A DNA stretch of 24,000 nt from Piscirickettsiaceae bacterium (GTDB lineage Bacteria; Pseudomonadota; Gammaproteobacteria; Nitrosococcales; Methylophagaceae), in the NCBI GenBank assembly GCA_024685995.1, contig JAIBDY010000008.1:1-24000 (forward strand). The letters are read 5' to 3'. Below the pieces are notes generated by a model, which was not told where the DNA came from, did not search any database, and was given only the letters and a program-made list of their open reading frames with translations. Within the stretch, counting starts at the first letter, position 1; the number at the start of each line of letters is the position of its first letter. This document shows, one piece after another, positions 2,308 through 12,690 of the stretch. A program made the position numbers and the translations under genes.

Positions 2308-4245
2308 GTGAAACTCGTTACCGCATCCAAACTACTTCTTTCGGCGATTGTTTTTTTGATTTCAGTATCCATAGCTATTGGTATATGGGGGTGGAATGAG
2401 CTGGATAAACCCTATCAAATTAACCAGGATTTCCAGAAGCGCAAGGCCTTATTTGATGTCGATGTGCGTATTTTATTAGAACGCTATCTGGCTTCTGGGA
2501 ATGCAGATTTACTCCAGCAGGCTGAAAGTAAACTGGCGCAATTGATCGAAAGTGACATCGAATGGCTAGAGGAAGAAGACAATGAAAATATTAAACATGC
2601 TGTCAAAGCGATTCAAGAAAATGTCCAGCTTATCCGAGCCGCGGGTAAGTTAGCTGCGGATCCTCAAGGGTTATTAATCAATAATGAACGAGAACGCTCG
2701 GGTGATATTAATTTATTATTGAGCTATGTCAATAAAACCAAGGGTGAGCGCTTAGCTTTACAGGTCGCTTTTCTATCAGAATTGACCCGTCTGAGTGAAG
2801 CACTTAATCAGATTGGGCGCTTGAGACAACAATATTTTGGCGCGACGGATGTCAACGTGCAAGCAGCGTTGGTGAGTAAAAATGAAGAGGTCTTGATGCG
2901 TGCCCAAGCATTACTTTCGTTGCCTAGTTTAGGCATTTATAGCGAGGTTGATGAGGATGCTTTGGTGGCCGAAGAGCCTGAAGAAATTGGTCAAAGAAGC
3001 ATTCAGTCCATTATTTCATTGACGAAAAGATATGATAAAGAGCTTGAGAACACGATTAATCTAGATCAACGCATGCAAGAGAGCCGTGTCGTGTTGATTG
3101 ACTCGTTAACGGCACTATCGACATTATTGACCAATCTTTCCGGTCAGATTGAGCTGATAAAGTCGAATATTTCGACGAAGGTTGCATTGATGCTGTTGGT
3201 GTCAATCGGCTTAGTAGTGATAGCTGTTGCGGCCTTGTTTTTCTTGCAAAATAGGATGATAGGCTTTTTAATTCAACTCGAGTCCTTTTTTAGAAAATTG
3301 CTCAATGCAGACTATAAGCAGCAGCTCAACTCAAATTTTAATTTTAAAGAAGTGCTGTCGGTCGAAAACTCGGGACGACAACTACAAACTTATTTAGCCA
3401 GCCTCGTTGATAAGTTAAGTTCTGAATCTGAAAGAGTTGTATCTGCCTGTAATGAAATGCAATCGGTATCTGCAACGGCGGTCGATTTAACAAGAAAACA
3501 AGACGAATCAACAGCTCATGTAGCCGCTGCGGTGACGGAATTATCCTACTCATTTAAAGAAGTTGCTAATAATGCAGCGAATGCCTCTGAATCCGCTAAC
3601 GTTGCCGATGATGCGACATTGGCTGCCAAGCAACAATTATCGTTAGCCGCCACTGCGACGCAAAAGATGGTGACTGATTTATTAACCGTAGAAGAGGTGA
3701 TGGTACGCCTTGAAAAAGGTGGGGAAAGTATTGGTGTCGTCTTAGAGGTGATTCGCGGCGTTGCAGAACAAACCAATTTATTAGCATTAAACGCGGCGAT
3801 AGAGGCCGCCCGTGCAGGCGACCATGGTCGCGGTTTTGCCGTGGTGGCTGACGAAGTAAGACAATTGGCCTCTCGCACAACACAGTCAACAGAAGAGATT
3901 CGCAATATTATTCAAGATGTTATCGCAATCAGTGCTGAAGCAACGCAGACACTGAAACAACAAAGCCAAGAAGCTTCATATTGCGCTCAGCAAGCCACGG
4001 ACGCTGAAACGGCGATAACGCCTGTGGTGTTAGCGGTTGAAAATATTAAGGCGCTTAATACAGCTATCGCAGTAGCGACACAAGAGCAAACTTTGACCGT
4101 AGATGAAATAGCGCGCAATACGGAAGAAATCAAAGTGAATTCGGAGTTTGTCAATTCGAATATCTCTGATATTAAACGGGCAGGGGATAGCTTGTTGGAT
4201 GTGAGCGAGACATTGAATGGCTTAATTCGACAACTCAAATCTTAG
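2308..4245 (+). CDS. Methyl-accepting chemotaxis protein (645 aa)
   Basis: TM1 is [21 protein letters not shown], followed by a helical periplasmic region of about 260 aa and TM2 [22 protein letters not shown]. The canonical MCP signalling hairpin [38 protein letters not shown] is present. The GTG start has no obvious SD, so the start is less certain than the gene. Confidence 0.95.
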
Positions 4246-5027
4246 TGAAGGCACTAGCCTTTAGCTTCACCGCCATCGGGTCGGCCGCCGCCTTGACATG
4301 TCATGGTTGTCAAACCAACCACAAAAAAACAATGGGGTTTCAATCGACTTGTATATCTAATCGTATTGCCTATATAATCAGACAGGTAATGAGAAGCACG
4401 TCACAAAATATTTAAACGCTAGGCCGTTTAAATGACGAGCATGGATATTGGGTTCAATAAAGAGCCTTGTTCAAATAGCACGAATTCACCAACTATCCAC
4501 AGACCTAACCAGATAATTTAGCCCCTGAAAGTGCTGAATGTCAGTATGCGATTATCTTAAGCGATGGATTATGGAATTATTTTAAGGTGCTTTTATCGAA
4601 ATATAAAGGCGCAGGTATTCGACGATATGAATAGCATGCCTATTCTCTTATAAGTTATAAATGAATTTAGATGACCTACTTAAGCGATAGACAAATTAAA
4701 CAATTATTGTGCGATTACTTCTCAAAAGTAAGTGCCGAGCCTCATGGCGTCAGAACAAAAATACGCAGTCGTCCCCGGTCAGCCAATACTAGTTCATATA
4801 ATAAGGCTGATTCATTGGCCGAGAGTAGCTTGTAGCATCAAACTGCTTGCGCATCGGACGCATGCAATTACGTTCTATTTAGCCTGGAACAAAAAAGAAT
4901 ATCGTTGCTGACCACTCAGCTCAGGCTTCCGCCTTCTCAAAACTCTAAAAGAGATGCTTACAAAGTGTCGTTCTGGTCATTCTAAGCACTTATTTTAATC
5001 GGGCTTTATTAGCTCTATCTCATCGCG

Positions 5028-6416
5028 CTACTGTTTAAGCTCTAGCTTAATGATCTGCAAGATCCAATCTCTTAGTTTAGTCAATTCTTGTGCATCGAGC
5101 CCTTGATGGGCTTTTTGTAGCAGCTGAGTGAGTTGGACTTGGTCGGATTTATTCAATCGATTAAAGCGGTCGCTAAAATAGTTGTTGTCACCGTTAACGC
5201 TGGCTACGGTGCGATCAGCATGTGTGCGTTTGAGGACCAGATCTAAAAAAGCGACGGCGCGGCCTAATAATGCAAAGCTGAACGTTAGGTTTTTAATAGG
5301 GCCTGCGGTCAGTGTTTTACCCGCGACAGGCAGGCCTTGGATAGTCAAATTTTCAGGTGTTGCGGTGGCAAAAATTGAAGCGGCGCCGGACAGTAGGCCG
5401 CCAGTCAGCGCGCCGGTCATGAGCGAAGCACCGCCGACGCCGATATCGATAACAACTCCAGCCGCGGCGCCGGCCGAGGCGGAGAGCATGACGATTTTTT
5501 TTCGATCGAGACCATATAAATACCAATGGCTACTGTCAAATAGATCGGGGTAGTCGATGTCTAATGTCGGCGTATCAATATGCATTTCAGGATGGGCATA
5601 TAAAGCTTGGAGTTGGTTTTGCATATCGGTTTCAGTTTGGCGTAACGCTTGTTGGTATTCGGCTTTTAATGTTTTTTCTAGTGTTTGTTGCACAAATTCT
5701 GCGGGGACTTTGGTTTCGCTAACATGGCTCAGCATTTGGGCGAGATGCTCTGCCACCAATAATGCCGCTTGCTGCTCTATGCGTTTAAAATAGTCCTGCA
5801 GCGTGTCGATGGTGGACTCAAGGGCGTGACGCCATGGTTCATACAGTTCTGCAAAGGCGGTCAGGATCGTGAATTGTTTTTGCTGGTCAGCGGTCATGGG
5901 ATCAAAGACACGTACCACGCTGAAAAATTGATTCAATGCATTTTGCCATTCTTGAACATAAGCCTCGCCTCCGATGGGGTTGATGAGCGCCATTCGCGGC
6001 TGACTGGTCCATTGTAGGATGGTCATTTCGGCTTCAAATTCTGGACTATAAGGTCGCGAGCCATCGATGACATAAATAATGCCCGCGCCGTCTAGAATAG
6101 GTTGCAATAGCGCGATTTCATCTTGGAATTTGGTATTGCCCTCGTGACGTTGTTGGCTAACAAAGTCTTGTATGACTTGTTGACGCTCGGCAGCATTGGG
6201 CGAGTGTTGCTGCAACCACGATAAGACTTGGCGAGGGCGTTGAAATCCGGGGGTGTCTATCAAGCGATATTGGGGGATACCGTCAATATTGAGTTCAAAG
6301 GCTTGTGCTGAAGTCGTGGTGCCTGAAATTTCAGAGATTTTGACGGCATCTTGCCGGGTTAAGGTCGCGACAATACTCGACTTCCCCTTATTCGGGGCGC
6401 CTACCACAGCAAACAT
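5028..6416 (-). CDS. Membrane-associated GTPase, GTPase/DUF3482-like (N-terminal MMR_HSR1-type G domain plus a long C-terminal domain)
   Basis: G1 is GAPNKGKSS, G2 is SGTTT, G3 is DTPGF. There is a Gly/Ala-rich hydrophobic stretch, SASAGAAAGVVIDIGVGGASLMTGALTGGLLSGAASIFATA. I prefer the ATG at 6416 (MFAVVGAPNKGKSS) because GAGGTGA sits 8 nt upstream. The track start at 6440 has no SD. Family name is from recall. Confidence 0.85.
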   Translation of the reverse strand: MFAVVGAPNKGKSSIVATLTRQDAVKISEISGTTTSAQAFELNIDGIPQYRLIDTPGFQRPRQVLSWLQQHSPNAAERQQVIQDFVSQQRHEGNTKFQDEIALLQPILDGAGIIYVIDGSRPYSPEFEAEMTILQWTSQPRMALINPIGGEAYVQEWQNALNQFFSVVRVFDPMTADQQKQFTILTAFAELYEPWRHALESTIDTLQDYFKRIEQQAALLVAEHLAQMLSHVSETKVPAEFVQQTLEKTLKAEYQQALRQTETDMQNQLQALYAHPEMHIDTPTLDIDYPDLFDSSHWYLYGLDRKKIVMLSASAGAAAGVVIDIGVGGASLMTGALTGGLLSGAASIFATATPENLTIQGLPVAGKTLTAGPIKNLTFSFALLGRAVAFLDLVLKRTHADRTVASVNGDNNYFSDRFNRLNKSDQVQLTQLLQKAHQGLDAQELTKLRDWILQIIKLELKQ

Positions 6417-6429
6417 GGGGACCGTCACC

Positions 6430-7719
6430 TCAGCGCCCATTTTTTAAGCTAATGTGGTGCTGTTGGGCAAAAAACTGCCAAGATTTCAGTTGGCTTGCAT
6501 AACGAGCGTTATCGATCTCTTGGCTGAATAAGACTAAGTCTACGGCGGTGTGTTGTTGTAAAAGCTCAATACTGTCGGCCAATTCGCCGGTTGGCGTTTG
6601 CGCGGGGTCAACAATCATCAGTACTGGCCTTGTCCGCTTGTTGGCAGGCGACGTTAACCATTGTGCATCTTCAAGCCAGTTTGCATTGCCTAGGTTTTTG
6701 ACAGTGGCCAACGCACATTTTGGTTGCTGCCAACTGATGAGATCGACACCGGGCTGGTGGATGTCGATGGGCTCGAGCGAGGCATACCCCGCTTCAGAAA
6801 TCATCGGTTGCTGGCTCACTTGATGGGTTTGTGCGACGAGGAATTGTTCGATATCGCCACTATTGATGATGCTCCAGCGTAGCTGTTTCACAAGACGTTG
6901 ACGTAAGAATACAGCGAGTAATAACCGCGGCAAAATGCCATATACGATCATCGCCATCACCAAGGTCAACCACCAACTTTCTCCTGAAACGCCATAAAAT
7001 GCACTATCTTGCACGACCAAGCGACTCTGGCTAATCAGTTCTGCGCTGGGCGATGCAATAAACCAGTGCCATGGCCAAGAGAGTAGGGTCATCAATTGCG
7101 TCATGGTTGTATCGTTAGTGATGAGTGTTGACGACCAAGCAAAACGGTAGTCTTGGAAAGTTGCCAAGACGAAAAAGCCGAATAATGCTGAGGCGGAAAA
7201 CCATAAAGCCAATGTTTGGCTTTGCCAAAATAACCATGGTAATAATAGGTTTTTATAAGGTGAAAAGGGGCTTAAGCCGAGTTTCTTAACCAGTATGGCT
7301 TGAAAAGGGTGCCCAGCAATATGTTGTTTTGACGGGGAGAAAACGGAAAAATAAACGCTACTCAAGGTCAACAACAACGGAATAAAGGCAAATAAGGCGA
7401 GCGGCAGCCATAAATTAATAGGTTGGGTAGGGTTGTAGTTGAGTACGCTAACCATAGTCGCAAAACCTGTAATGGCTGCTATCAGGCCGAGGAATCCGAA
7501 AAACCAAGGCTTCGGCGTTATCATGCGTTGTTGTTTTCGCCATTGATTTAAATAGTCGTTGGTCGAAGAGGCTTGTCGTACGGGGTTCTCTAAATGGGGC
7601 AATTTAAGCTTGTTGTGTGCGACAAAGAGACGAAAGTTTAGCCACTGAAACAGTGCCGTGTTCGTACCGTTTTTGAAGAAAAAATGTAATATCGCTTTTG
7701 TCGGTAATGATGATGCCAT
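6430..7719 (-). CDS. Polytopic inner-membrane protein, DUF2868-like (429 aa); first gene of the pair with the downstream GTPase
   Basis: At least four hydrophobic helices are visible: FFGFLGLIAAITGFATMVSVL, LWLPLALFAFIPLLLTLSSVYFSVF, TLALWFSASALFGFFVLATF and WWLTLVMAMIVYGILPRLLLAVFL. A soluble C-terminal region of about 130 aa follows. The stop codon is 13 nt before the GTPase ATG. Family name is from recall of the DUF2868/DUF3482 gene pairing. Confidence 0.75.
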   Translation of the reverse strand: MASSLPTKAILHFFFKNGTNTALFQWLNFRLFVAHNKLKLPHLENPVRQASSTNDYLNQWRKQQRMITPKPWFFGFLGLIAAITGFATMVSVLNYNPTQPINLWLPLALFAFIPLLLTLSSVYFSVFSPSKQHIAGHPFQAILVKKLGLSPFSPYKNLLLPWLFWQSQTLALWFSASALFGFFVLATFQDYRFAWSSTLITNDTTMTQLMTLLSWPWHWFIASPSAELISQSRLVVQDSAFYGVSGESWWLTLVMAMIVYGILPRLLLAVFLRQRLVKQLRWSIINSGDIEQFLVAQTHQVSQQPMISEAGYASLEPIDIHQPGVDLISWQQPKCALATVKNLGNANWLEDAQWLTSPANKRTRPVLMIVDPAQTPTGELADSIELLQQHTAVDLVLFSQEIDNARYASQLKSWQFFAQQHHISLKNGR

Positions 7720-7966
7720 AGCTAACCTAAGTTCCCAAGACGATGCCCGAGTGTTTGTTTTGGTGTTTCGTGCGATACAACTAAGATAACAGTATAACTA
7801 ACAAACCGCGCCAGCATTTCATGTTAAGTCTGCAGTATAAACCGAGTTCATGTGGCACATTAGCGATAAGAGATAAATTTATAATTTGTTCCATGTGAAG
7901 CATTATTCAAAGCAAAACACAAAGCTTCCCGCTCAAAGGGCATGCAGATTCAATTTAGGCTTGCGG

Positions 7967-8971
7967 TTAGTAGGTGATAGTGACGGTCACAGTATCACTG
8001 TAACTGCCGCTGGGTATCGATTGGGGGGCGGGAACACGACCATAAATGGTCAGGTTCTGGCTGCTTCCTGTACCAGTGTTATTGGCCGTATCGACATCAA
8101 GGGTGTTACCCCAGCGTAGATTGTGAGCACTGTCGCGGTAAAGTTCATATTGAACATAATTACTGGAGGCATCAAGACGCATACGGCGGACTGTCCCATT
8201 GGCATGGAGGCCATTATCGAGCGATACTTTCCATGGTGTGGTCTTGGTGCAAGTAAAGCTGAAGTTAGTGGTTTGATCATTATTATTGTTGATCAAGCCG
8301 GGTACAGTACCAAAGTTGAGGTCGTTGACAACATCGATCTCGCAACTGGCAGGCACAACGGCGCTAGCGCTGAAGGGAAAAGTAATACTGCCGCCACCGT
8401 TGCCACCACTGGTGCAACTAGCAGGCCAGCTTGGTGTGCCTAATACTTCTTCTGCATAACGATAATCTAAGCGGGTATGACCACCAGTGAATAGGCTCTG
8501 GTAATTGTCGGCGGCGAGGCCAAGTTGTGCGGGCACTTGACCATACAGCGTGACCGATTCCATGCCTGAGCCGCCCAATACTGGGACGGCATACTGTAGG
8601 TCAATATCGACATCATCAGTGACACTGTCTCCCCAAGTTTGGCTACGACTTGCATCACGATAGATTTGAAATTGTAATGGGGCTAGTGAAGCGTTACTCA
8701 TGTTCCGAGAGTTAATGCTACTACCCGTGGCGCTACCCGCACCAAGATTAAGACACATGCGTACTCGGGCGTTGGCTAATACAGATAAACCGGCAGTGTG
8801 GCAATCGACCGTCACCGTCGCCGTATTATTTTGCATCGTGCCCATACTGATATTACCAAAGGTTAAATTACTGGCACTCGCACTACAGTCGGTTATCGAA
8901 ACAGCCTTGCATGGGAAGCCGAACAAAGTGATGATAAATAGGCTCGCGATTGGCTGATTTACTGTTGTCAT
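7967..8971 (-). CDS. Two-domain spore-coat-U (SCPU) protein; putative tip subunit/adhesin of a Csu-type pilus (CsuE-like position)
   Basis: It is the last gene of the operon. It carries two tandem pilin-like modules, ending VTLYGQVPAQ... and LTIYGRVPAPQSIPSGSYSDTVTVTITY, the same C-terminal motif as the upstream pilin. I prefer the ATG at 8971, which forms an ATGA overlap with the usher stop. The track start at 8992 has no SD. Confidence 0.8.
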   Translation of the reverse strand: MTTVNQPIASLFIITLFGFPCKAVSITDCSASASNLTFGNISMGTMQNNTATVTVDCHTAGLSVLANARVRMCLNLGAGSATGSSINSRNMSNASLAPLQFQIYRDASRSQTWGDSVTDDVDIDLQYAVPVLGGSGMESVTLYGQVPAQLGLAADNYQSLFTGGHTRLDYRYAEEVLGTPSWPASCTSGGNGGGSITFPFSASAVVPASCEIDVVNDLNFGTVPGLINNNNDQTTNFSFTCTKTTPWKVSLDNGLHANGTVRRMRLDASSNYVQYELYRDSAHNLRWGNTLDVDTANNTGTGSSQNLTIYGRVPAPQSIPSGSYSDTVTVTITY

Positions 8972-11367
8972 AGCGAGGTCTCTTTTAGACATGGGACAGG
9001 GCCGATATAACTGATCGGATCTTTAAGCGTGGGGTAATCGAATTCGGCGTAGCATGTGCTGTTAGGTAAATCGACACGGATGCGGTTTTTGTCTTGTAAG
9101 TTTTCAAGATAGGTTTCGCCATCAAAGCCTACAAATACTAAGCTATCGGGACGACTTTCTTGGTGTACACGACTCGCGACAGGTAAGGGCTGACCACGAG
9201 CATCGGTTAGCAGCACGATAGCGGCACGCACTTTTTTCACAGAGAATTGTACTAGCGTGCCAGCACGATCGCTTGGGGTTGTTACCTGATCTACGATAGT
9301 GACTTTATTATCAATGGGTAAATCCATAGGGTCAATTGATAGCCGGTTATGTTGCCAAGCGTTGAGTCTAGTCACTAGCAGGTTACCCTTATCATTAGTG
9401 TACCCAATGTTCCGATTTTCCAGTTTAACAGGCACATTGGGAATACCGTTAGTAGACACAACGGCGAAGCTATCATTGATGCGCCGTGAGGCAAAACCTT
9501 GGCGATTCATCCAGACGAGGCCGCCGCTGGCTTGGGCATAACTGGCATGTTGATCTCCGCTGCGAGCTATACCAGCAGCAACACGACCATAATTACCTTG
9601 CCAACTACCTTCTGCCGAGGTGTTGCTCATATTGCCATTATGTCCATTTTGAAGCCGCCAACCGTAACCGCCATCACTGGGCAATGCACGTTGTAGGCTG
9701 GCTTGATAACGGTTTCTGTTTGCATTGCGTTGCACATTACTACTGAATTGATAATGACGGTCAAAACTAAGATTAATGCCAAATTGCAGGTTGCGGTCTG
9801 CACTGTCGTTGAGATTTTGATTATAGGATAGATTGAGGAAAATACCGCGACTAATGCTATTACTCCAGTAGACACCGGCATAGCGCGAGGGTCGCTCATC
9901 ACTATCAGCATAGTCGAAGCGAGTGGCATTGATGCCAACATTCCCAAAACCGACCGCATGCACGCCCGCGAGTATTTGTTCGCTGATTTTCGGTGGTGCG
10001 CTACCATAGCGCGTTGCAACATCACGATAGCTGCCGAAGCTACGCTGGCTGGCGGCCGAAAAATTGAAGTGACTGTTACTCCAACTGTAACGCCAAGCTG
10101 TCTGGTGGCCCTGTGCATTGCCTTCATGACTACGCGAGTGAGCGAGGCTAATCACACCTGCCAATTGTGGTTGCCAGACTACACCGATACCGCCATTCAG
10201 TAAGTCACCCCCCGTTTCAGCATGACTTTCCATGGTGAGTTGGTTAGTCACGCCGTAACGAATACTGCCAGTGGCGACCAGTTCGTTTGCATAAGCAAAG
10301 GAACGGATACCATAGTCTTCATGAACCTTTCCAAGGTTTAATGACCAGTCTGATAGCCCTTCGGCGAGTAACTGTTGCGTACTGTAGAACGGAATATCAA
10401 TCGTGGTGGTGCGGCCAAGTATATCGGTGGTTACCACTTGTGCCAGGCCTGTGCCAGTGATGCCGGGTACGGTTGTGAGTTCAAAGGGACCTACAGGCAC
10501 CTCGGACTGATATCGGCGCATGCCATCGATGTAGAGTTCGACGGAGGAAGGCACCGTGGCTTTGCCGACAAACGAAGCCAGCGGCGAGGTTGTGCGGTAG
10601 GGCTGTAGTCTGAAATTACGACTAAACTGGATACCCCCAAAGCGTAAGGGACGGGTCCAACTCAATCCACCACTGATGGCATCGCCGAGGATGACGCGTG
10701 TTGCATGCTCAGGAAATGACCATTCACCAAAGGTATCCAGTGCCACGGTCTCGTTGTGCCAATCGTTGTTTGCCGTGCGTTGTGCACGAGTGATGGCGCT
10801 ATGGCTAAAGACGCCGCTACCAAACCCAAATAGTCGAAACTCGGTGGCGGCCGACGCTAAACGGTGGTCGCCGTCTTGATTGAGGTAAATATCGTAGTTG
10901 ACTAAGGCGCCTGGCGAGGCCATGGCTGTCGGAGCTGTTTGTGGCATCCCCGCCCAGAGTGTGGTTGTCGGTAGCGACAGTAATGATAATGGCGCGGTGA
11001 GTTGTAACTGTTGGGTGTTGACACGGTACGCTACCTCAAGCCCCGGCAGAGCGCTTAATGCGACGCTATCCTCGGAATCATAATTTTGTAAGGTGAAGCC
11101 TAACTGTCTTAGGTCGCTAACTTGGGCGAACAGCTCATTACCTTGTTGGGTAATAGCCAGCAGCGTCGGCTGGCGCGTTTGATTGAGAATCACTTCTAGA
11201 TATAAAGTGATGGCCTGTTGCTGATTCACATGATCGATGATGGCGTTGGCTGACAGGTAGCGTTCGCCGGAGACCTCTCCAGTTAACAATGCTCCCATCA
11301 GTAACGTTGCTAATCGTCTAGTCCGTCGCAGTAATCGGGACAAGAATACGCTCGACCAATTCACCAT
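8968..11367 (-). CDS. Fimbrial outer-membrane usher (799 aa, CsuD-like)
   Basis: Size, position between the chaperone and tip subunit, and beta-rich G/Y/N/S-rich composition are typical of PapC/FimD-type ushers. The ATG at 11367 has SD AAGGA 5 nt upstream. The N-terminus is signal-like (LATLLMGALLTGEVSG). Confidence 0.9.
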   Translation of the reverse strand: MVNWSSVFLSRLLRRTRRLATLLMGALLTGEVSGERYLSANAIIDHVNQQQAITLYLEVILNQTRQPTLLAITQQGNELFAQVSDLRQLGFTLQNYDSEDSVALSALPGLEVAYRVNTQQLQLTAPLSLLSLPTTTLWAGMPQTAPTAMASPGALVNYDIYLNQDGDHRLASAATEFRLFGFGSGVFSHSAITRAQRTANNDWHNETVALDTFGEWSFPEHATRVILGDAISGGLSWTRPLRFGGIQFSRNFRLQPYRTTSPLASFVGKATVPSSVELYIDGMRRYQSEVPVGPFELTTVPGITGTGLAQVVTTDILGRTTTIDIPFYSTQQLLAEGLSDWSLNLGKVHEDYGIRSFAYANELVATGSIRYGVTNQLTMESHAETGGDLLNGGIGVVWQPQLAGVISLAHSRSHEGNAQGHQTAWRYSWSNSHFNFSAASQRSFGSYRDVATRYGSAPPKISEQILAGVHAVGFGNVGINATRFDYADSDERPSRYAGVYWSNSISRGIFLNLSYNQNLNDSADRNLQFGINLSFDRHYQFSSNVQRNANRNRYQASLQRALPSDGGYGWRLQNGHNGNMSNTSAEGSWQGNYGRVAAGIARSGDQHASYAQASGGLVWMNRQGFASRRINDSFAVVSTNGIPNVPVKLENRNIGYTNDKGNLLVTRLNAWQHNRLSIDPMDLPIDNKVTIVDQVTTPSDRAGTLVQFSVKKVRAAIVLLTDARGQPLPVASRVHQESRPDSLVFVGFDGETYLENLQDKNRIRVDLPNSTCYAEFDYPTLKDPISYIGPVPCLKETSL

Positions 11368-12094
11368 TTATCCTTGCCGTAAATGTGCCACCACTGCCCA
11401 GTTTTAGGCCGTCTGGCAGTAGCCATTGTCGTTGCTGATTGGGTAGTACATAACCTGAAAGCCCGGGCGCGATGTTTATGCGTTGTTCGCCCTGCTGCCA
11501 ACTAAGGTCGGCAATCTGGGCGTGACTGTTGCCTTCATTACGGATGTGCAGAAAGTGACTGTCGTTGTCTTTGGTTAAGCGCGTATTCAAGATCGGCTCA
11601 ATAGTAATGTGATTTGGCGGTGTGAGAAAGACGGGGATGGAATAACGCAGTCGAAACTGTAGACCATCGGCTGGGGTATTGTCTGTTGTATCTAAAGGCA
11701 CCGGGACTTCATCGATGAGGATCCGATAACTGCGTTCGGTGGTGGTTGGCGGCTGGCCGTTACGGACTATCCGTACTAGTTGCTGAACATTGGGCGCCAG
11801 TTGCAACATTGGTGGGCTAGCGACAATAGCCTGACTAGGCAGCAATTGATCTTCTCCATCTTGTTGCCGCCATTCAAATACACGAACTTGAGCATATACA
11901 GTCGCTTTACCAGTGTTGATTAGCGTGAGTCCAGCGGCGTTACGTTCTGAGGCAACAAAAATTTGGGTGGGGGAGACCTGCATGCTGGCTTGACTGAGAG
12001 AGCAAACTAACATCAAAAGCGGTAGTGTTATCCTCGTCAGTAACCGCTTTAGCGTGGTGTTGAGTCGTAACTTTATCACCGCAACACTCATCAT
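11318..12094 (-). CDS. Periplasmic pilus chaperone (PapD-like, CsuC-like)
   Basis: About 258 aa with a signal peptide (LPLLMLVCSLSQASMQVSPTQIF). It has the two-lobed Ig-like chaperone size and motifs (VRVFEW, YRILIDEVP, LRYSIPVFL). The ATG at 12094 overlaps the pilin stop as TAATG. The TTG at 12100 in the track is an alternative start. Confidence 0.85.
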   Translation of the reverse strand: MMSVAVIKLRLNTTLKRLLTRITLPLLMLVCSLSQASMQVSPTQIFVASERNAAGLTLINTGKATVYAQVRVFEWRQQDGEDQLLPSQAIVASPPMLQLAPNVQQLVRIVRNGQPPTTTERSYRILIDEVPVPLDTTDNTPADGLQFRLRYSIPVFLTPPNHITIEPILNTRLTKDNDSHFLHIRNEGNSHAQIADLSWQQGEQRINIAPGLSGYVLPNQQRQWLLPDGLKLGSGGTFTARINGELVERILVPITATD

Positions 12095-12609
12095 TACCAA
12101 GTGATAGTGGCGGTGACGGTATCTTTATAATCCTGCGCGGGCGCGCTAGCACTAGGGACTTGGGCATAAATAGAGTGATTTTGTATTGCACCACTGCCAG
12201 TGAGACCGCCTTTAACAGAGCCAAAGGTCGTGTCGTCACCCCACAGCGTTGTGTAGGTATCAGAGTAGAGCTCGTAGGCGACAAAGTTGGTATTGACGGT
12301 TTGACCAATCATGCGCCGAGAGGTCGCGTCTGCATTTGCGCCGCTATTCAATGCGACGGTGTATGCCGTACCTTGCGTGCAGGTAACGTCAATAGAGGCG
12401 CTGCTGACCTGAATATTGGTTGCTGAGGAAGCTTGACTACCAAACACAACATTACCATCAGTCGAAGTGTCAATGCTACAGCTTGATGTGATCGTAATAG
12501 TGACATCAAAGTTACCGGTATCACTACCGGCAAAAACCAGTGGTGCGAAACCAAAGATCGATACTTTGGCAAGAACCTTAAGAAGGGTGTAAGGATTAAA
12601 ATAGTGCAT
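12094..12609 (-). CDS. Spore-coat-U domain pilin; major subunit of a Csu-type archaic chaperone-usher pilus (CsuA/B-like)
   Basis: Signal peptide KVLAKVSIFGFAPLVFAGS. Cys pair SSCSID...DVTC. C-terminal IYAQVPSASAPAQDYKDTVTATITW is typical of SCPU pilins. I prefer the ATG at 12609, because the track TTG at 12639 falls inside a TATAAT hexamer. Confidence 0.85.
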   Translation of the reverse strand: MHYFNPYTLLKVLAKVSIFGFAPLVFAGSDTGNFDVTITITSSCSIDTSTDGNVVFGSQASSATNIQVSSASIDVTCTQGTAYTVALNSGANADATSRRMIGQTVNTNFVAYELYSDTYTTLWGDDTTFGSVKGGLTGSGAIQNHSIYAQVPSASAPAQDYKDTVTATITW

Positions 12610-12638
12610 AATATTTGTTTTTCCATCCTGGTGTGACA

Positions 12639-12690
12639 ATTATATGACAGCGCACTAAGCTATAGGATTATCTGTTTGTTGACAAGATCT
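12639..12690 (-). promoter_or_regulatory. Candidate promoter region of the pilus operon
   Basis: On the - strand there is a TATAAT at 12644-12639, about 30 nt upstream of the ATG at 12609. There is also a TTGTCA-N17-TAGCTT arrangement further upstream. Neither has a full consensus partner hexamer. Confidence 0.3.

Follow-up and report, generated by a model that had tools for sequence, protein, structure and literature searches.

The window analysed here, a stretch of 24,000 nt from contig JAIBDY010000008.1 of a Piscirickettsiaceae bacterium, carried on its minus strand a gene for a DUF2868 membrane protein, followed directly by a gene for a GTPase with a C-terminal DUF3482 region. These two genes were an ordinary member of the catalogued, unstudied DUF2868 + DUF3482 pair, which was obligate, its partners being always together in the bacteria sampled. 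Tentatively, and with confidence somewhat short of even, the two products are proposed to be subunits of one nucleotide-switched inner-membrane complex with FeoB-like coupling, the output of which would lie inside or across the membrane. The genes, with stop codons included, were as follows.

6430..7719, minus strand: DUF2868 gene, 429 aa; PF11067, 97 bits, E = 2e-27; AlphaFold2 (AF2) model with a mean predicted local distance difference test score (pLDDT) of 82.8; ratio of nonsynonymous to synonymous substitution rates (dN/dS), 0.14
5028..6428, minus strand: GTPase/DUF3482 gene; likely start codon GTG 6428, giving 466 aa; PF01926, 55.3 bits; PF11981, 147.3 bits; AF2 pLDDT 85.8, predicted template modelling score (pTM) 0.84; dN/dS 0.07

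Both proteins scored far above the curated Pfam cut-offs. The first matched PF11067 over residues 156-420 (cut-off 26.8), and the second matched PF11981 (DUF3482) over residues 167-445 (cut-off 29.2), with a G domain N-terminal to DUF3482 that matched PF01926 (MMR_HSR1) over residues 11-95 (cut-off 21.9), in agreement with the original prediction, made from the letters of the DNA, of a DUF2868-like and a DUF3482-like protein. In the NCBI records they were named "DUF2868 domain-containing protein" and "GTPase/DUF3482 domain-containing protein", and in NCBIfam the GTPase stayed below threshold throughout, its first ~100 residues resembling Der, HydF, MnmE, Era, EngB, and further families. Profile searches placed the pair in DUF2868, DUF3482, and a generic Era/Der-type G domain only, and in no characterised family, as had been expected. 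A literature search on the DUF2868 and DUF3482 names and on their Pfam and InterPro accessions found no functional study, which bears out the earlier statement that no function had been assigned; the mentions were in-silico lists, marker tables, and a machine-learning feature list. The pair is listed among the hypothetical proteins of P. aeruginosa that were analysed in PMC12864544, and in a proteome study a DUF2868 protein was more abundant in the dark in Thiodictyon.

Linkage of the two genes was examined in a set of 201 genomes in which each family of the class was represented once. PF11981 was found above its cut-off in 12 of them and PF11067 in exactly the same 12, while neither family exceeded its cut-off in the remaining 189. 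At all 12 loci the two genes were located on the same contig and the same strand and were directly adjacent, with DUF2868 upstream, so that gene order and adjacency in the window were those of all 11 other families carrying either gene. The recurrence of the pairing, as stated earlier, was thereby upheld, and so was its synteny. All-against-all BLAST of the open reading frames (ORFs) in neighbourhoods of up to 19 kb around the 12 loci revealed no common neighbour besides the pair itself. In a phylum-level sample, the GTPase was present in 32 of 401 genomes, all 32 of the same class, including 10 of the 10 genomes of one gammaproteobacterial family, two of them identified as Pseudomonas by exact look-up of their proteins; it was found in none of 14 well-known control genomes. 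A collection of plasmids gave matches in three of 72,556 records, namely two mislabelled Neisseria chromosomes and one 485-kb replicon (megaplasmid). The module is essentially chromosomal and near-absent from plasmids and phages, and this, together with its presence in every genome sampled of that one family, favours a housekeeping rather than a mobile character.

Two sets of records deserve mention in their own right. NZ_CP119142.1 and NZ_CP119140.1 from Neisseria gonorrhoeae, each ~2.17 Mb and evidently chromosomes filed as plasmids, matched a DUF3482-type GTPase at a place where the records list no feature. KR093654.1 and 13 other records of Moraxella catarrhalis "phage Mcat" contained a DUF3482-like GTPase (24% identity, 65% query coverage) situated within 1-4 kb of the record ends, which is probably host DNA at prophage borders.

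In the alignments of the 12 families, both partners divided into the same two deep clades, the GTPase having GHPNKGKSS / DTPGFQR / ALINxIG in clade 1 and GHTNxGKTSLLRTL / DTPGLED / LNFxA in clade 2. The pairwise identities of the two partners were correlated (r = 0.93), a figure inflated by shared species history. Both genes were under purifying selection, as indicated by the dN/dS values given above, which were calculated against the nearest relative. The present instance is routine; it is the family that represents a real knowledge gap, being a strictly linked membrane nucleoside triphosphatase (NTPase) pair under purifying selection, which reaches Pseudomonas (2 genomes) and has matches in Neisseria gonorrhoeae. 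Besides agreeing with the family consensus in order, adjacency, and motifs, the window copy differed from it in having Ala in G1 and the shortest DUF2868 protein of the 12.

The junction of the two genes required reinterpretation. On the minus strand, three in-frame candidate starts of the GTPase were located within 6416-6440, namely ATG 6440 (470 aa; the first ATG, giving the ORF 5028..6440), GTG 6428 (466 aa), and ATG 6416 (462 aa), the last of which was used in the public database gene call and lies 13 nt past the DUF2868 stop codon. The N-terminus MxxP[VIAM]FAVVG was found in 29 of the 29 nearest homologues, with a conserved Pro two residues before FAVVG, and ATG 6416 is unlikely because it would cut off this Pro. 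In the two nearest relatives, designated L015 and L016, the GTPase begins 1 nt past the DUF2868 stop (TAAgGTG and TAAtATG, respectively), and the junction in the window, TGAgGTG, was in the same register. On the grounds of the conserved Pro and of these two junctions, GTG 6428 is most likely the start codon, preceded by a 1-nt spacer and giving a protein predicted to begin (M)TVPMFAVVG. The GAGGTG read earlier as a Shine-Dalgarno (SD) sequence includes this GTG. In the operon originally described, with a GTPase gene 13 nt downstream behind a strong SD, the distance and the SD thus most likely need correction. The window arrangement is a 1-nt spacer if GTG 6428 is used or an 11-nt overlap if ATG 6440 is used, and whichever start is taken, ATG 6416 included, the genes are translationally coupled by position; such coupling is the rule across the 12 families, in which the two genes either overlapped by 1-8 nt or stood only a few nt apart.

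The G domain and its divergent G4 and G5 positions

The G domain and its motifs, each of the latter checked by translation of the exact coordinates, were located as follows.

5841..6428, minus strand: G domain of the Era/Der class, switch II being followed by an insert of three helices (AF2 model, Foldseek, and PDB profile matches)
6375-6401, minus strand: G1/P-loop GAPNKGKSS; family consensus GHPNKGKSS, with Ala here for His
6312-6326, minus strand: G2, SGTTT
6243-6257, minus strand: G3, DTPGF, with a hydrophobic residue at the position of the Ras catalytic Gln
5970-5981, minus strand: G4 position, NPIG in ALINPIGG, in place of NKxD; Asn invariant in 127 representatives
5898-5906, minus strand: G5 position, FDP; family F-[D/N]-[A/P], with Asp172 here, directly after strand beta6

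The AF2 model of the G domain had the canonical order beta1, P-loop, alpha1, beta2, beta3, G3, helices, beta4, alpha3, beta5, alpha4, beta6, and alpha5, with three helices (residues 61-108) after switch II versus one in the canonical G domain. Foldseek against the PDB returned matches to the G domain only, namely to Era (3iev, 1.4e-4), Der/YphC, Nog1, and EngB, with E-values from 1e-4 to 1e-3, and a profile search of PDB sequences gave Der at 2.5e-16. Motif statistics were taken from 116 close homologues and from 127 representatives less than 50% identical to one another. In G1, the residue that is Ala in the window protein was His in 114 of the 116 close homologues, His or Arg in the family, and Pro in the nearest relative, while N9, G11, K12, and S13 were invariant in the close homologues and N9 in all 127 representatives. 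In G3, D54, T55, P56, G57, and F58 were invariant in the close homologues and reached 90% conservation or more in the representatives. The residues characteristic of Era/Der-like GTPases of the TrmE-Era-EngA-YihA-septin-like (TEES) class, i.e., GxxNxGK[ST] in G1, Thr in G2, and DxxG in G3, were all present and invariant in the family. Era, Der (EngA), MnmE, and EngB, which share with the window protein the P-loop Asn of GxxNxGKS, GTT in G2, and DTPG plus a hydrophobic residue in G3, were its best sequence and fold matches; unlike these, it had N-x-I-x at G4, F-[D/N] at G5, the three-helix insert, and no KH or RNA-binding domain, and it is presumably anchored in the membrane with a dedicated membrane partner.

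GTPases with a hydrophobic amino acid substituted for the catalytic Gln (HAS-GTPases) are defined by this replacement (PMC3466195). The residue directly after DxxG was F58 in the window protein, Phe in 116 of the 116 close homologues, and Phe, Leu, or Met across the two clades, which agrees with the definition. K+-activated GTPases possess a first Asn in G1 (GxxNxGKS) and a second Asn five residues past the G1 Lys, which stabilises the K-loop (PMC3466195). N9 corresponded to the first of these and is the P-loop Asn of the Era/MnmE/FeoB group.

In the AF2 model, N146 was located where strand beta5 ends on its C-terminal side, exactly the site of G4 in a G domain. A regular-expression scan of residues 1-200 of the GTPase found no [NT][KQ]x[DE], so that the NKxD of the TEES class is lacking and a canonical NKxD had not been mis-aligned when ALINPIGG was first proposed as a non-canonical G4. 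That proposal, and the earlier readings of G1 and G3, agreed with the translated coordinates and can be refined, the altered G4 being a trait of the whole family. Across the 127 representatives, Asn was the invariant first residue; the second was Pro, Arg, or another residue, with Lys never among the eight commonest; the third was mostly Ile; and the fourth was Gly in 53, Asp in 15, and another residue in 59. Since these representatives and the second deep clade (LNFxA) share the altered G4, the loss of the guanine-reading Asp and of the Lys is ancestral to the family and not peculiar to the window gene. A G4 without the canonical Asp also occurs in YchF/Ola1, an unrelated family with the P-loop GTPase fold; YchF uses NxxE and prefers ATP.

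The residue at position 172 in G5 was Asn in 71 and Asp in 56 of the 127 representatives, and nothing else. Where G4 retained Asp or Glu, G5 had Asn in 19 and Asp in 5, and where the fourth G4 residue was Gly, G5 had Asp in 31 and Asn in 22; the sequences being related, this association is suggestive only. Asp/Asn172, placed near the base pocket by G-domain topology, is a candidate for a relocated base-reading residue, and guanine may be read from G5 or nucleotide specificity may be relaxed. In a family lacking the Asp and Lys of G4 and keeping a strict Asp/Asn in G5, nucleotide preference is a question that can be assayed directly.

Predicted membrane-associated parts of the two proteins

In the AF2 model of the GTPase, alpha5 was followed by two long antiparallel helices (residues 193-230 and 240-272), and a well-modelled C-terminal helical region packed back onto this stalk. 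Between them was the glycine-zipper-like stretch pointed out in the original prediction, which was confirmed at 5361-5504 with invariant glycines.

5361..5504, minus strand: glycine-zipper hydrophobic hairpin, residues ~305-352, with invariant Asp324 (...GVVIDIGVGGASLMTGALTGGLLSGAAS...); presumed membrane anchor

The hairpin was rich in Gly and Ala, with Kyte-Doolittle hydropathies of 1.82 and 1.42, and is presumed from its sequence to serve as a membrane anchor. Small residues were spaced at i/i+4 (G316, G320, D324, and G328, then S331, G335, and G339), of which G316, G320, D324, G335, and G339 were invariant, the Asp being found in 12 of the 12 families. The DUF3482 part had no relative in the PDB, neither by sequence (E <= 1) nor by fold (Foldseek).

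Four segments of the DUF2868 protein had a 19-residue Kyte-Doolittle hydropathy of 1.95-2.26 (residues 75-93, 101-119, 170-188, and 253-271) and were designated transmembrane segments TM1 to TM4.

7441..7497, minus strand: TM1, residues 75-93; hydropathy 2.02, helix 71-93 in the model
7363..7419, minus strand: TM2, residues 101-119; hydropathy 2.12, beginning at a P-I-N motif in which Asn102 is invariant (12-family alignment and homologue set A2)
7156..7212, minus strand: TM3, residues 170-188; hydropathy 1.95, part of a long helix 150-188 in the model
6964..7155, minus strand: Trp-rich TM3-TM4 loop, residues 189-252, DYRFAWSSTL ... SWPWHW; predicted periplasmic, with W195, T198, and P224 invariant in 12 families
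6907..6963, minus strand: TM4, residues 253-271, with the YG..PR motif; hydropathy 2.26
6433..6777, minus strand: C-terminal alpha/beta domain, residues 315-429; predicted cytoplasmic, without P-loop, poorly conserved

Residues invariant across the 12 families were N102, W195, T198, P224, the Trp before TM4, P264-R265, and W414; Y260, G261, P264, and R265 were all invariant in the homologue set designated A2, and of these only P264 and R265 in the 12-family alignment. Lys and Arg were clustered at the N-terminus (10 residues), past TM4, and between TM2 and TM3, a loop with 4 of them and not a single acidic residue, whereas no charged residue was present in the TM1-TM2 turn and the TM3-TM4 loop had 2 Lys + Arg versus 5 Asp + Glu. 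This charge distribution fits an N-in/C-in topology, with the Trp-rich loop predicted to be periplasmic and the C-terminal domain cytoplasmic. The C-terminal 115 residues had alternating beta and alpha elements and no P-loop, and they were the least conserved part of DUF2868. Compared with the longest-ORF translations of the other families (460-584 aa), the window protein (429 aa) was the shortest of the 12, with part of the TM2-TM3 segment missing.

A weak match to PF07662 (C-terminus of the CNT Na+-dependent nucleoside transporters) was observed in 17 of 50 DUF2868 homologues, at residues ~175-245 (window ~6985-7195), that is, in TM3 and the conserved loop, with 10-18 bits versus a cut-off of 32.3.

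Proposed coupling and alternative readings

In the reading tentatively favoured here, the two proteins would form one inner-membrane complex. With a hydrophobic residue at the place of the catalytic Gln and with the P-loop Asn retained, the G domain, like the GTPases of the Era/MnmE/FeoB group, probably depends on dimerisation or on contact with a partner for nucleotide hydrolysis. Movement between the nucleotide on and off states would travel along the stalk into the hairpin and the DUF2868 four-helix bundle and would change the state of a membrane-embedded site, made up of the buried hairpin Asp and of invariant DUF2868 positions (Asn, Pro-Arg, and Trp/Thr). Such coupling would be nearer to that of FeoB, whose G domain controls a membrane conduit or a transmembrane signal, than to that of dynamins. 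That the two proteins act in one co-functional membrane complex is highly probable within this reading, while a specific conduit-or-signal output is rather doubtful and is put forward as a proposal, because FeoB membership failed and DUF2868 had no significant transporter or channel relatives. Three handles are testable, i.e., the family-wide lack of the G4 Asp and Lys with a strict Asp/Asn in G5, the invariant hairpin Asp, and the conserved Trp-rich loop, predicted to be periplasmic.

An extended version is speculative and has a low probability. A 12-helix, split, G-protein-coupled membrane conduit or transmembrane switch would be built from two copies of the four-helix protein and two GTPase hairpins, the invariant Asp of each hairpin being buried, with the nucleotide read from G5 and the complex perhaps responding to something other than GTP alone, such as ATP, xanthosine triphosphate (XTP), or an alarmone.

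The resemblance to FeoB lies in the order of parts, since both begin with a G domain of one class and continue through a helical domain into a membrane portion, and FeoB_N was a borderline match. In contrast, the membrane part of the pair consisted of a two-helix glycine zipper and a separate four-helix protein, not of FeoB core or Gate domains. FeoB keeps the Asp in G4 (NxxD).

Several observations weigh against the favoured reading. Membership in FeoB was rejected, with 26.7 bits for PF02421 (FeoB_N; cut-off 27.0), 16.2 for TIGR00437 (cut-off 315.65), and no FeoB_C or Gate match. Transporters and channels provided no significant fold or sequence relative of DUF2868, the matches to Slo1 having template modelling scores (TM-scores) of 0.10-0.15, and no sequence relative of DUF2868 was present in the PDB at E <= 10. 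The lead to CNT transporters, sub-threshold as described above, is treated as noise, probably compositional, or at most as a faint lead, although no other hint recurred. The K+ signature was only half present, as position K12+5, the place of the second Asn, was Ala in the window protein, Ala or Ser among its close homologues, and Arg in clade 2. Because pLDDT was below 50 for residues 323-363 and hydrophobicity was only moderate, the hairpin could be peripheral instead of membrane-spanning. A concatenated query (residues 1-895), the reach of which was relatives sharing 5-residue words, recovered no near relative with DUF2868 and DUF3482 fused in one protein.

Remodelling of the inner membrane in the manner of dynamin, atlastin, or mitofusin, in which the G domains would dimerise, the stalk bend, and the hairpin work like a paddle to deform, fuse, or repair the membrane with DUF2868 as receptor or anchor, is unlikely, although it is the likeliest of the alternatives. 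The AF2 layout of G domain, helical hairpin stalk, hydrophobic hairpin, and C-terminal helices resembles that of bacterial dynamin-like proteins (BDLP, LeoA/LeoBC, IniA, and DynA), which likewise have a G domain, a helical stalk, and a membrane-inserting hydrophobic hairpin in this order, and LeoA/LeoBC gave weak matches at the level of the P-loop (NCBIfam, 21.4 bits; PADLOC, 34 and 31 bits). However, the PADLOC matches spanned residues 11-68 only, the 21.4 bits for the LeoA/HP0731 model NF041922 compare with a cut-off of 325, and no Dynamin_N match was obtained at E <= 0.01. The sole dynamin-like match in Foldseek was IniA (6j72; E = 0.021, prob 0.66, root-mean-square deviation 33 A), and the G domain was small, with ~190 residues versus ~300 in dynamins, and of the Era type, with Era, Der, and EngB as its best relatives. 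Membership in the dynamin superfamily was therefore rejected, there being no Dynamin_N, a score far below the NF041922 cut-off, and no fold similarity over the whole chain. The conserved periplasmic loop of the partner is unexplained by remodelling from the cytoplasmic face and argues for a trans-membrane role. This loop, the invariant buried Asp, and the invariant polar and Pro-Arg positions in the partner helices give a weak preference to a FeoB-like output over dynamin-like bending. Of the roles suggested originally (remodelling, signalling, or quality control by a nucleotide-driven membrane machine), the machine itself received support, while the dynamin-like option failed every membership test run.

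The alternating beta/alpha fold of the DUF2868 C-terminal domain raises another alternative, in which this domain would be a dead G domain that teams up with the live one in the manner of SR-alpha/beta or Rag-type pairs, serving as its GTPase-activating protein or effector, with signalling, not transport, as the output. Local Foldseek "prob" values were 0.95 for EngB, 0.84 for EF-Tu, 0.82 for a chain of FLCN-FNIP2-Rag-Ragulator (6ulg_F), and 0.63 for Gtr1, but the E-values of 0.35-1.1 were not significant. Similarly, the best local hhalign match paired beta-alpha-beta of this domain with beta4-alpha3-beta5 of the G domain, but against the partner G domain the probability was 0.2% with E = 0.28, and the domain lacks a P-loop and is the least conserved part of its protein. 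Such a heterodimeric switch is improbable, and it overlaps with the FeoB-like reading instead of excluding it.

Somewhat more improbable still is a membrane-tethered relative of the ribosome-associated GTPases Era, Der, and EngB, which would dock ribosomes or nascent membrane proteins for assembly or quality control with DUF2868 as receptor. The closest relatives of the G domain are indeed ribosome-biogenesis GTPases, namely Der (2.5e-16), Era, Nog1, and EngB, and a weak match to the beta subunit of the signal recognition particle receptor was observed (PF09439, 17 bits). However, only the generic G domain showed this similarity, for the most part over residues 1-115; the GTPase yielded neither a KH nor any other RNA-binding domain, its DUF3482 part lacked a PDB relative at E <= 1, and, unlike core ribosome factors, the pair was absent from 189 of the 201 families sampled.

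A mobile anti-phage defence or toxin-like two-gene system, which the combination of membrane protein and NTPase, the patchy distribution, the weak LeoA/LeoBC matches, and the matches at the ends of Moraxella prophage records might suggest, is very improbable and was rejected, considering that DUF2868 had no PADLOC match and the GTPase only those to LeoA (34 bits) and LeoBC (31 bits) at P-loop level in residues 11-68, that 10 of 10 genomes of one family including 2 Pseudomonas carried the GTPase, that the plasmid and phage matches were a 485-kb megaplasmid, two mislabelled Neisseria chromosomes (together 3 of 72,556 plasmid records), and prophage-record edges, and that the partners were under strongly purifying selection and shared a deep two-clade split.

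Flanking regions

The source genome was a metagenome-assembled genome of 1.84 Mb in 56 contigs (82% complete), and the named relatives, with ~70% identity, were from the marine gammaproteobacteria Aestuariicella, Oceanobacter, Thalassolituus, and Methylophaga. Upstream of the pair, on the same strand, was a chaperone-usher pilus operon of the Csu/SCPU type, and a methyl-accepting chemotaxis protein (MCP) gene, convergent with the GTPase gene, was located downstream, with 782 bp between (4246-5027). The earlier description of the surroundings, with a long non-coding stretch on one side and a pilus operon on the other, was accurate.

7967-12639, minus strand: four-gene operon of SCPU pilin, PapD chaperone, usher, and two-domain SCPU tip, directly upstream of the pair
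7720..7966, minus strand: gap of 247 bp between the pilus tip gene and the DUF2868 gene, with conserved patches in the alignment with the nearest relative

The pilus operon was also the neighbour of the pair in the nearest relative (L015), but not in the next one (L016, 74% identical). Blocks of 7720-7966 kept in the nearest relative included TTTCACATG.AACAA, CTAACATGA, and GTTATACT. No terminator-like site was called within 7720-7966, and none of the five promoter-like sites called for 4200-8200, a number not above that in shuffled controls, fell inside this gap. The gap may be regulatory and perhaps contains the pair's own promoter. Rfam and terminator/promoter scans of the flanks gave nothing above background, and the downstream stretch (4246-5027) contained no ORF of at least 60 aa and no Rfam match. 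At the corresponding place, L016 instead possessed two short Phage_T4_gp19 fragments downstream of the pair, which indicates that this flank is variable.

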